Below, piece after piece: positions 9,601 through 12,246 of a DNA stretch of 64,000 nt. Each line of letters begins with the position of its first letter. Within the stretch, counting starts at the first letter, position 1. Under the pieces are notes generated by a model. The model worked only from the letters and a program-made list of their open reading frames with translations, was not told the origin of the DNA and ran no database searches. A program made the translations under genes and the position numbers. Origin of the DNA: Iphione sp. A-MEVVRFRX5 (lineage: Eukaryota); NCBI GenBank assembly GCA_976226885.1, contig OZ320313.1, forward strand, positions 171,926,001 to 171,990,000. Direction: 5' to 3'.

Positions 9601-12246
9601 TTGGACAAGATATGCCTACTGGAGTTTATGTGCGCAGAATGAGAGATTCTGATTTTCGAGCTGAACGACAGGCTCGTTATGTTAGAATGTATCAGTGGTT
9701 GGAATGGAAATCTGCGAAAGATAATGTTGATATTATACACAGATTAAATAGAGGATACGAGAAAAGAATTGGACCTTATTTAGTCGATGGATATGCTCCC
9801 TCTTCAAAAACAGTTTACGAGGTATTTAAGATACTATATTTAATAAAAAAAATGGTTACACAATTATATTTAATAAAAAAGTGGTAACATAATATTTTTT
9901 AAGAAACTGAGAGAGACAAAATCTATTTGTGTTCCTTTTTCTTTTTCAGTTTAATGGATGTTATATTCATGGATGTGAGAAATGTCAAAAGGGTAAAATG
10001 GATGAAAATGAACGAATCAAAAAACTGAAACGTACAAAACAGAGAGAAGAATATATTACTGCACAAGGATATAATTTGAATGTTATATGGGAATGTGAAT
10101 TTAATATACTTTGTCAAATTGATACATCTATACGGGAATTAGAATTAATTCCAAGTTTTTCAAGGAAATACTCTGGTGTTCTAAGTGAATTAGAAATTCT
10201 ACGGGCTGTGCGAAATGGTGATATCTTTGGAGCAGTAGAAGTTGACATTAGGGTAAGTATATATATAGGAAAAAGGAACTAACTGATAGTAATTTATATC
10301 TGTTCATTCTAATAAGATTATTTATTTAATTAATTAATTAATTTTTTTACCACAGGTGCCGGAGAAGTGGAGTGATGGGTTTGAGCAGGATTGTTCACCA
10401 TCTGAGTATTTTGGAGAAATGTCTCCAATTTTTTGCACTACTGAAATTCCCTTTGAGAGCATTGGTTCACACATGCAAAAACATGCCAAGGATCATGATT
10501 TATCACAGGTATATATAAATTTTATTTAATATTATATTAATTGAATGATTTATAACACTTTACATTAATGTTTACTGGTGGATTCCAATGCTTCTCTTTT
10601 TTTTTTTAGAAACCAAGGAAACTCCTATTAGGTGGCATGAGTGCGAAAAAAATTTTACTTGCAACCCCGTTACTTCAGTGGTACTTGAAACATGGTATGC
10701 AAGTGACAAAAGTCTACCAAGTAATTGAGTTTACTAAGAAACAGTGTTTTGAAAGCTTCAAAAATGAAGTAACTGAAGCTAGGCGAGTGGGAGATGCGGA
10801 CAGGACTAAAAGCATTATTGCTGACACTATGAAACTTATTGGTAAGAATAAATATATATCTATTTTTAAACAAATAGCAGATATATGGAATTTATCAAGT
10901 GAACTTTTTTGTAATGATACATCTGCAGTGGGAGTTTGATTTTAAGTATAGGAGAGATTTATGTTAAAAAAATGTGGTTTATAATATTGTTATTTTATTT
11001 TATAGGAAATAGTGCTTATGGATCTTTGATTATGGATAAGGAAAAGCATCAAAATGTGTCATATGTCTCTGGAACAAGAAATGCTTGTCTCCAAGCTAAT
11101 GAGCCTGAGTTTCGTAAAATGTGTGAACTAGATGATGATTTATTCGAAGTGGAGTCTGTTAAACGTAAAATCATTCTAAATCTCCCAATATATTTAGGTT
11201 ATTTCATTTTACAATATGCAAAACTTCGAATGTTACAATGGTATTATGATTGTTTGGATATATTGGTTGATCGATCCGATTATGAATACATTGAGATGGA
11301 TACAGGTAAGTAAAAGATATATAGTATATAATCTAGTAAACAATGTCTTGAATTAATTAATCAATTAATCAATAATGGATACAAGTTTGTTTTTTTATTT
11401 TACAGAGTCCGTATATTTTGCTATTTTGAGTTTGTTTTTTTATTTTTTACAGACTCTGCATATTTTGCTATTTCGGGAAAAACATTACAATCTGTTATTA
11501 AACCATCTATGGCAGTCCCGTTTCATCAAGCAGTGAATGGATCATGTTCATCTTCTCCTAAGCCAACTTATTTCAGTCAGTGGTTTCCCCGAGAGTGCTG
11601 TGATGTACATAAATCTTTTGATAAGAGAACCCCTGGGCTTTTCAAGTTGGAAGCTAGTGGGGAAGAAATGGTTGCATTGTGCAGTAAAACTTATATCTTA
11701 AAATCAAATGAAGACTATAAAATGAGCTGTAAAGGTGTGAACAAAAATTCCTTACAAACCCCAATGGAGAAATATCAAGCAGTATTAACAACTCATCATT
11801 CAGTTCCTGGTTTGAATAAAGGTTTTCGTGCAAGGGAGAATACCATTTTTACTTATCGGCAAACAAGATCAGGATTGTCGTATTTTTATTGTAAACGTGA
11901 AGTGAGGGATGATGGAATTAACACTTCACCTTTAGGTATTGTTTTGTCTCCATGGAATATTCCTCAATCTTATGTATTCAATAGCCAGACAGATCCCCTT
12001 TCAAATGAGTTTCCCTCTCTAATCAGCTTATTCAATCAAATCTTTCATACAGCGCAAGAGGCTTATAATTACCAATTACAGTTTTATAATGGTACAAAAA
12101 TGGATTATATAGATGAGAAAAGAATGAAATTAAATGAAACATGGATCGAGAAAAGAGTTGACATAATGAAGGAGATTATTTTAGAAAAAATGAGAACCAA
12201 TGTTGAAGTACGTAAGGCTCTAAAAAATCAGGGGATCTACCATTAG
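6611..12246 (+). CDS. pPolB: Protein-primed family B DNA polymerase, 8 exons: 6611-6772, 6885-7055, 7227-9821, 9950-10252, 10356-10508, 10610-10841, 11006-11305, 11453-12246 (1569 aa as assembled), running into a C-terminal NADAR domain
   Basis: All seven introns are GT..AG and phase-compatible. Splicing restores VYE|FNGCYIHGC, KLIG|NSAYG (motif B) and EMDT|DSAY (motif C). Exonuclease motifs FDFEA, GFNSARYD, YNNKDV and motif A DANALY are present. Exons 1-2 are less certain than exons 3-8. Confidence 0.92.

Follow-up and report, generated by a model that had tools for sequence, protein, structure and literature searches.

A Polinton/Maverick element in the window (the whole stretch analyzed here, 64,000 nt of contig OZ320313.1 from Iphione sp.) carries two equal-looking 3' splice acceptors at the boundary of intron 7 and exon 8 of its polymerase gene, pPolB. 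The reading we favor, with a probability of roughly 0.8, is that the downstream acceptor is the working site and the upstream one a tolerated pseudo-acceptor, left by an old duplication that is specific to this family of elements. The features concerned are collected in Table 1.

Table 1. Features of the pPolB gene, its duplicated acceptor and the surrounding element (coordinates of the window)
Feature	Position	Strand	Remarks
Polinton/Maverick element	5578..27672	+	22.1 kb; AGTAGT termini, terminal inverted repeats, target-site duplication, rve+chromo integrase, A32-type ATPase
pPolB gene, eight exons plus NADAR-like tail	6611..12488	+	
pPolB exons	6611-6772, 6894-7055, 7227-9821, 9950-10252, 10356-10508, 10610-10841, 11006-11305, 11453 onward	+	
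Exon 7	11006..11305	+	Ends with M-D-T plus base 1 of the second Asp codon; motif C (DTDS)
Intron 7	11306..11452	+	147 nt, GT-AG, phase 1; position common to all nine families examined
ATGGATACA, 9-nt copy of exon 7 end	11375..11383	+	Abuts copy 1; in 7/7 family copies
Copy 1 pyrimidine tract and CAG, upstream (spare) acceptor	11384..11405	+	
Copy 1 exon-like 23 nt, now intronic	11406..11428	+	Differs from the real exon at 2-4 positions, according to copy
Copy 2 pyrimidine tract and CAG, functional acceptor	11429..11452	+	
Exon 8, coding part	11453..12225	+	Starts DSAYF, contains KxY motif; purifying selection after the duplication
TGA met in the window copy when the upstream acceptor is used	11534..11536	+	

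The element has terminal inverted repeats with 55-nt arms (96%) at 5578-5632 and 27618-27672, a perfect 6-bp target-site duplication, an integrase open reading frame (ORF) with Pfam matches to rve (E=5e-11) and chromo (E=4e-8), and an ATPase ORF matching Pox_A32 (E=8e-6). Together with a protein-primed family B polymerase, these are the features by which we class it as a Polinton/Maverick. Two further ORFs (25234-25677 and 25691-27031) presumably encode protease-like and major-capsid-protein-like products, judging by motifs; a Pfam search for an adenain-type protease or a jelly-roll capsid domain gave no match for either. Within the cargo region (13193-13615, 16265-20439 and 20792-23200) lie a BIR (IAP-like) gene, three apparently paralogous ORFs to which no function was assigned (16265-17197, 18351-18977 and 19744-20439), and two ORFs resembling secreted, Cys-rich, membrane-anchored proteins, one of them with a Ser/Thr-rich stalk. 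Other short tandem duplications occur inside the element, with a 29-bp unit in intron 3 (9836-9906) and a 57-bp coding unit (16343-16495), and a degenerate repeat of the inner part of the terminal repeat occupies 5630-5687. Inverted repeats flank the element on both sides (984-1336, 3484-3538 and 32021-32275), which suggests other repeat elements, possibly including one that hosts the insertion; about 13 copies of the telomere-like hexamer CTAACC lie chromosome-internally at 29895-29972. Among viral contigs, seven pattern matches were obtained, none of which was confirmed. The element shares with known Polintons/Mavericks (adintoviruses) its terminal inverted repeats, 6-bp target-site duplication, pPolB, rve integrase, packaging ATPase and IAP-like cargo, as described in the available parts of PMC8097293, PMC8502044 and 10.1101/2023.08.22.554363.

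The eight-exon model of pPolB, with seven spliceosomal introns spanning 6773-11452, reads without a stop from 6611 to 12225; the acceptor of exon 2 is uncertain, with an in-frame alternative at 6885. Exon 3 as a query retrieved 16 protein homologues of 1516 to 1857 residues at 34 to 52% identity, all of which contain DTDS and one of which carries PF03175. Compared as proteins, exons 3 to 8 map in order onto all four homologues that were aligned, and in these four uninterrupted proteins exons 7 and 8 adjoin at a single Asp. Searched singly against Pfam, the exons gave no direct polymerase match, and a sequence search of the PDB gave no meaningful one. The second Asp of the YxDTDS motif is, we assume, the counterpart of Asp458 in phi29 polymerase. 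According to the portion of PMC4974454 available, the YxDTDS motif is conserved in family B, and the catalytic carboxylates of phi29 polymerase are Asp249 and Asp458. A NADAR-like domain lies at the end of the gene (12130-12488; Pfam E=0.017 and 5e-5 for its two halves), and PF08719 was found on 3 of the 16 homologues. A frame break private to the window copy, at about 12221-12225, splits this domain, possibly through misassembly of a homopolymer run.

Intron 7 splits the second Asp codon of DTDS, and its donor GT at 11306 is followed by two acceptor AGs, the first ending at 11405 and the second 47 nt farther on, at 11452. Each belongs to one copy of a repeat unit that spans the exon-intron boundary (copy 1, 11384-11428, 45 nt; copy 2, 11429-11475, 47 nt), so that each copy holds an intron 7/exon 8 boundary. 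Tandem Repeats Finder (TRF) scores the duplication at 141, and the alignment of copy 1 with copy 2 scores 64, compared with a maximum of 33 in 5000 shuffles. As seven loci carry both copies, the tandem acceptor duplication proposed in the initial annotation is real; the copies quoted there were correct as a duplication, the string for copy 1 lacking its last G. The two splicing outcomes given there hold for the window copy as translated. The downstream acceptor, with the exon starting at 11453, yields the active-type MDT-DSAYFAISG, and the upstream one, with the exon starting at 11406 (47 nt earlier), yields Glu, a shifted frame and a TGA 42 codons on. Intact DTDS together with exon 8 can be reached through the downstream acceptor only.

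The recurrence of the exon 7 end at 11375, immediately before copy 1, which had also been pointed out, is likewise real and present in every family copy. Among 5000 dinucleotide shuffles, 0.06% produced an equally long match anchored on the exon end (p=0.0006), and among 1000 shuffles 1.9% produced an unanchored one (0.019); of 40 other introns of these elements, 4 contain unanchored matches of at least 9 nt. The repeat ATGGATACA is probably not due to chance, on modest support. Two roles were ruled out for it: that of an alternative donor, because the real donor is followed by a TAA in frame, and that of a useful start codon, because translation in its frame stops at the TGA at 11534. A perfect 9-nt repeat of sequence lying close to the exon 5 end is likewise present in intron 5 (10509-10609).

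How far the duplication extends was assessed in the 1.18-Gb assembly (89 contigs), where the 40 of 132 candidates that were scored gave 55 matches, corresponding to at least 30 loci. Both flanking exons were present in 29 of 30 loci, all 29 with a GT-AG intron at the identical phase-1 position; seven carry the duplication and 22 a single acceptor. Six additional loci comprised five with a single acceptor and one that could not be resolved owing to an insertion. With the nine families defined by intron sequence, and L009 and L050 left out as not assessable, the duplication is found in 7/7 copies of the window's family and in 0/27 copies of the eight others. A search with the acceptor pattern, allowing two mismatches, returned 14 sites at exactly these seven loci, two at each, and a reversed control pattern returned none; no single-acceptor member of the family was seen in this search. 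The siblings thus keep both acceptors throughout, a point on which the earlier reading had asked for a check. They are about 99.6 to 99.8%, 98.7% and 95% identical to the window copy. The left flank differs for each of the seven copies, target-site duplications stand at both ends of five, and the copies are independent insertions; as in the window, the 6-bp duplication is perfect at four of the six siblings, the other two having no right end that was found. In the oldest sibling (L036), the region of exons 5 to 6 is interrupted by an insert of about 4.6 kb (534-5167 of that locus), and about 145 nt of the element's sequence is present both before and after this insert; farther along, about 1.2 kb is missing.

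Since the window copy and its oldest sibling are both duplicated, the duplication predates their split. This split is dated by dS values of 0.10 (exons 1-5), 0.08 (exons 5-7) and 0.16 (exon 8), and by differences at 58 of 755 intron sites (7.7%, introns 1-6). Selection on exon 8 was examined with L009 and L008 as outgroups, on the assumption that exon 8 and intron 7 have a common history. On the stem leading to six copies, we counted 13 synonymous and 5 nonsynonymous changes over 154 and 608 sites (pN/pS 0.10, p=2e-6), and between the two subclades 5 and 2 (pN/pS 0.10, p=0.005). On the branch of the oldest copy itself the counts are 5 and 8 (0.41, without significance); the private changes, 1 and 3, come close to neutrality, and three nonsynonymous changes could not be polarized. 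The pairwise comparison of the window with the oldest copy gives dN/dS 0.19 (p=5e-7), and exon 3 is similar to exon 8, at 0.16 and 0.19. That exon 8 remained under purifying selection once both acceptors were present indicates that a working polymerase was made and selected, and therefore that 11453 was used. The family also went on inserting after the duplication, with its own target-site duplications. The pN/pS of 0.10 implies that the acceptor next to the real exon has stayed functional, insofar as splice site use can be read from substitutions.

The acceptors themselves offer no explanation for this preference. A matrix built from 40 introns of nine families assigns 12.4 bits to the upstream and 12.7 bits to the downstream site, so that scoring by sequence cannot separate them. 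Candidate branch points of the form YTRAY lie at -38, -46 and -50 of the upstream acceptor; for the downstream acceptor, the only candidate in the branch-point range is a TGA at -24, and two copies lack even that. Such motifs are loose in these introns, with YTRAY at -14 to -45 in 20 of 40. An upstream decoy AG within 2 bits of the true acceptor was found in 8 of the 40 other introns, one of them with an uncertain boundary. Two GAG acceptors were dismissed on their scores, a tandem one at 11407, in frame (-0.7 bits), and another at 11430 (1.9 bits). A stable RNA fold, sought between 11280 and 11500, was not found (z=0.57, 143 of 200 shuffles being as good). In the accessible part of PMC9225289, short human introns strongly favor the upstream 3' site, following the proximity rule of Reed and Maniatis. 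Equal scores combined with this rule, which rests on human data, make upstream use the default expectation, with heavy leakage possible, and leaky use of the upstream acceptor is indeed plausible. With the rule favoring the upstream site and selection indicating the downstream one, sequence features do not account for the choice of 11453.

A course of events compatible with these observations would start with slippage or template switching during replication, which would have duplicated a short segment across the intron 7/exon 8 boundary and left two acceptors of equal appearance; the 9-nt copy of the exon end may stem from the same or a neighboring event. Splicing at 11453 would be sufficient for active pPolB. 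Either the full exon 8 context, such as enhancers, would favor the adjacent site, or use would be split between the two, and either circumstance would reconcile the proximity rule with selection on the downstream site. Any use of 11406 would then be unregulated leakage into a dead product, and the upstream copy, likely a pseudo-acceptor, would drift free of selection.

Drift of this kind is seen in the exon-like half of the spare copy. All seven copies agree in the first 23 nt of the real exon 8; the upstream twin departs from these at four positions in four copies, three in two copies and two in one copy, and a comparison of the window with the oldest copy shows 2 of its 23 positions changed, matching the intron rate. 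The first codon of the spare copy encodes Glu in six copies and Asp in one, the oldest. The acceptors are spaced by 47, 47, 47, 48, 47, 42 and 46 nt, so that all three frames are represented; upstream use is predicted to lead to a stop after 35 to 51 codons in five copies and to an in-frame, motif-disrupting insertion in two. A conserved alternative product or frame was looked for across the seven copies and not found. The Asp-to-Glu change is removed as a mechanism, because the frame varies among copies and the oldest keeps Asp, and it is irrelevant where the frame is shifted behind the Glu. The upstream tract and AG have no substitution in any of the seven copies, whereas all four substitutions of the spare copy fall in the exon-like half (p of about 0.014 to 0.07 at a uniform rate, in a half that has twice the C+G); both points count, weakly, against the pseudo-acceptor reading. 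As evidence the conservation is weak, because at the intron rate P(0 of 21)=0.19 and P(AG intact)=0.85. The length of the T-run varies among copies, and some of these differences could be assembly consensus errors.

Other explanations have to be weighed against a tolerated pseudo-acceptor. An assembly artefact or chance repeat, which A+T-rich sequence with homopolymer runs might favor, has a practically negligible probability since the duplication is found on seven contigs, at seven loci that differ in their flanks and in the variant they carry, and the shuffle test of the two copies refutes it as well. The initial annotation had also considered a recent neutral or disabling event. In the disabling version, the duplication would have killed the polymerase, and the copies would have spread with the help of other families; the mis-splicing predicted by the proximity rule and the presence of other polymerase-bearing families in the genome speak for it. 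It is very improbable all the same: purifying selection acted on exon 8 once the duplication had arisen, barring repeated replacement of this exon by recombination, and the duplication is older than the split of copies 8 to 16% apart at neutral sites. We regard the disabling event as refuted by this selection and by the continued insertion of the family. The neutral version fits best, except that the event was not recent, being older than a split at dS 0.10-0.16.

Two readings would give the spare acceptor a role. It could act as a constitutive attenuator that diverts a fixed share of transcripts to a dead or truncated product and was kept because less polymerase spares the host. The equal scores, the better upstream branch-point candidates, the proximity rule and the unsubstituted tract and AG would all be in keeping with this, yet the conservation lies within the neutral expectation, the product differs among copies, and eight other multi-copy families do without the duplication, which leaves attenuation unlikely. 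Still less likely is the proposal that headed the initial annotation, an on/off switch, taken here as a regulated one: a host factor would select the 3' splice site according to tissue or stress, much as splicing of P-element intron 3 toggles between transposase and repressor. Such a host-controlled switch, gained by a 45-nt duplication, would direct the upstream site to a product of about 1,345 residues and the downstream site to active polymerase; the putative short product would hold the N-terminal and exonuclease regions with no working active site and could possibly serve as a repressor or primer source. The geometry permits this, with two equal acceptors separating intact DTDS from a dead product, and splice control of a transposon enzyme has a precedent (PMC7776569, as far as available). 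Nevertheless, the switch found no positive support. The off-product, its frame and the Glu codon (absent in one of seven copies) are not conserved, the duplication occurs in one of nine families, no stable RNA structure is predicted, and the stretch from one acceptor to the other changes as fast as the introns do, which makes it a less likely binding site. A pure off-state needs no fixed frame, so the variable frame weakens the switch and does not kill it. Were a switch real, it would be a splicing switch for the latency of an endogenous DNA virus, caught at birth, and regulated use would amount to P-element-like splicing control for a Polinton polymerase.

Known systems place the tolerated pseudo-acceptor in context. 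In the choice of the transformer 3' site by Sex-lethal, splicing decides the product through dedicated silencer elements and known factors. Drosophila P-element intron 3, in the parts of PMC7776569 at hand, is similar in that splicing decides between active enzyme and truncated product, and differs in having dedicated silencers, known factors and a defined product of intron retention, whereas the Polinton case, known from sequence alone, has no conserved element or product. The 3' sites at least 20 nt apart covered by the proximity rule (PMC9225289, in part) likewise combine similar strength, separate tracts, one donor and a short intron; the human data favor the upstream site, while in the Polinton selection indicates downstream use. 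By analogy, the nearest known case is the minisatellite in intron 7 of human F7, whose unit, according to the available part of PMC1557585, spans the exon-intron boundary and creates functional but silent pseudo-donors. Both are boundary-spanning tandem repeats that create extra, potentially functional splice sites, and in F7 the site beside the real exon is used and the others are silent. The differences are that F7 concerns 5' sites of a host gene and rests on experiment, and the Polinton a 3' site of a mobile element whose use is deduced from selection. The literature covered, a partial sample outside Repbase annotations, supplements and the 2006 founding paper, holds no account of a duplicated acceptor in a Polinton. 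The duplicated acceptor can be regarded as a dated natural experiment, in which a strong spare upstream acceptor in a short intron was tolerated through long activity against the proximity rule; it lends itself to testing how an invertebrate chooses between 3' sites and is not a new system.

The introns of pPolB have a wider distribution than the duplication. Comparing introns 3 to 7 across families (the window, L008-L030 and L049-L054), we found introns 5, 6 and 7 at the same positions in every family where they were mapped and intron 3 at the same position in all six families with both flanking exons mapped; intron 4 is missing from two families (L015/L026 and L051). Between families, the intron sequences look unrelated, and the peptides of exons 4 to 8 are about 45 to 94% identical. 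Vertebrate Mavericks are described as intronless when intact in the part of PMC8097293 available, in contrast to the window's pPolB with its seven introns, five of which were compared and are largely shared across nine families, and its NADAR-like tail; introners have been reported in dinoflagellate Polinton-like elements (PMC11957031, likewise in part). In the partly covered literature, outside the 2006 founding paper, Repbase annotations and supplements, we found no description of spliceosomal introns at shared positions in animal Polinton pPolB. These shared introns may be more interesting than the duplicated acceptor, and their presence in nine Polinton families bears on how long such elements have depended on host nuclear splicing.
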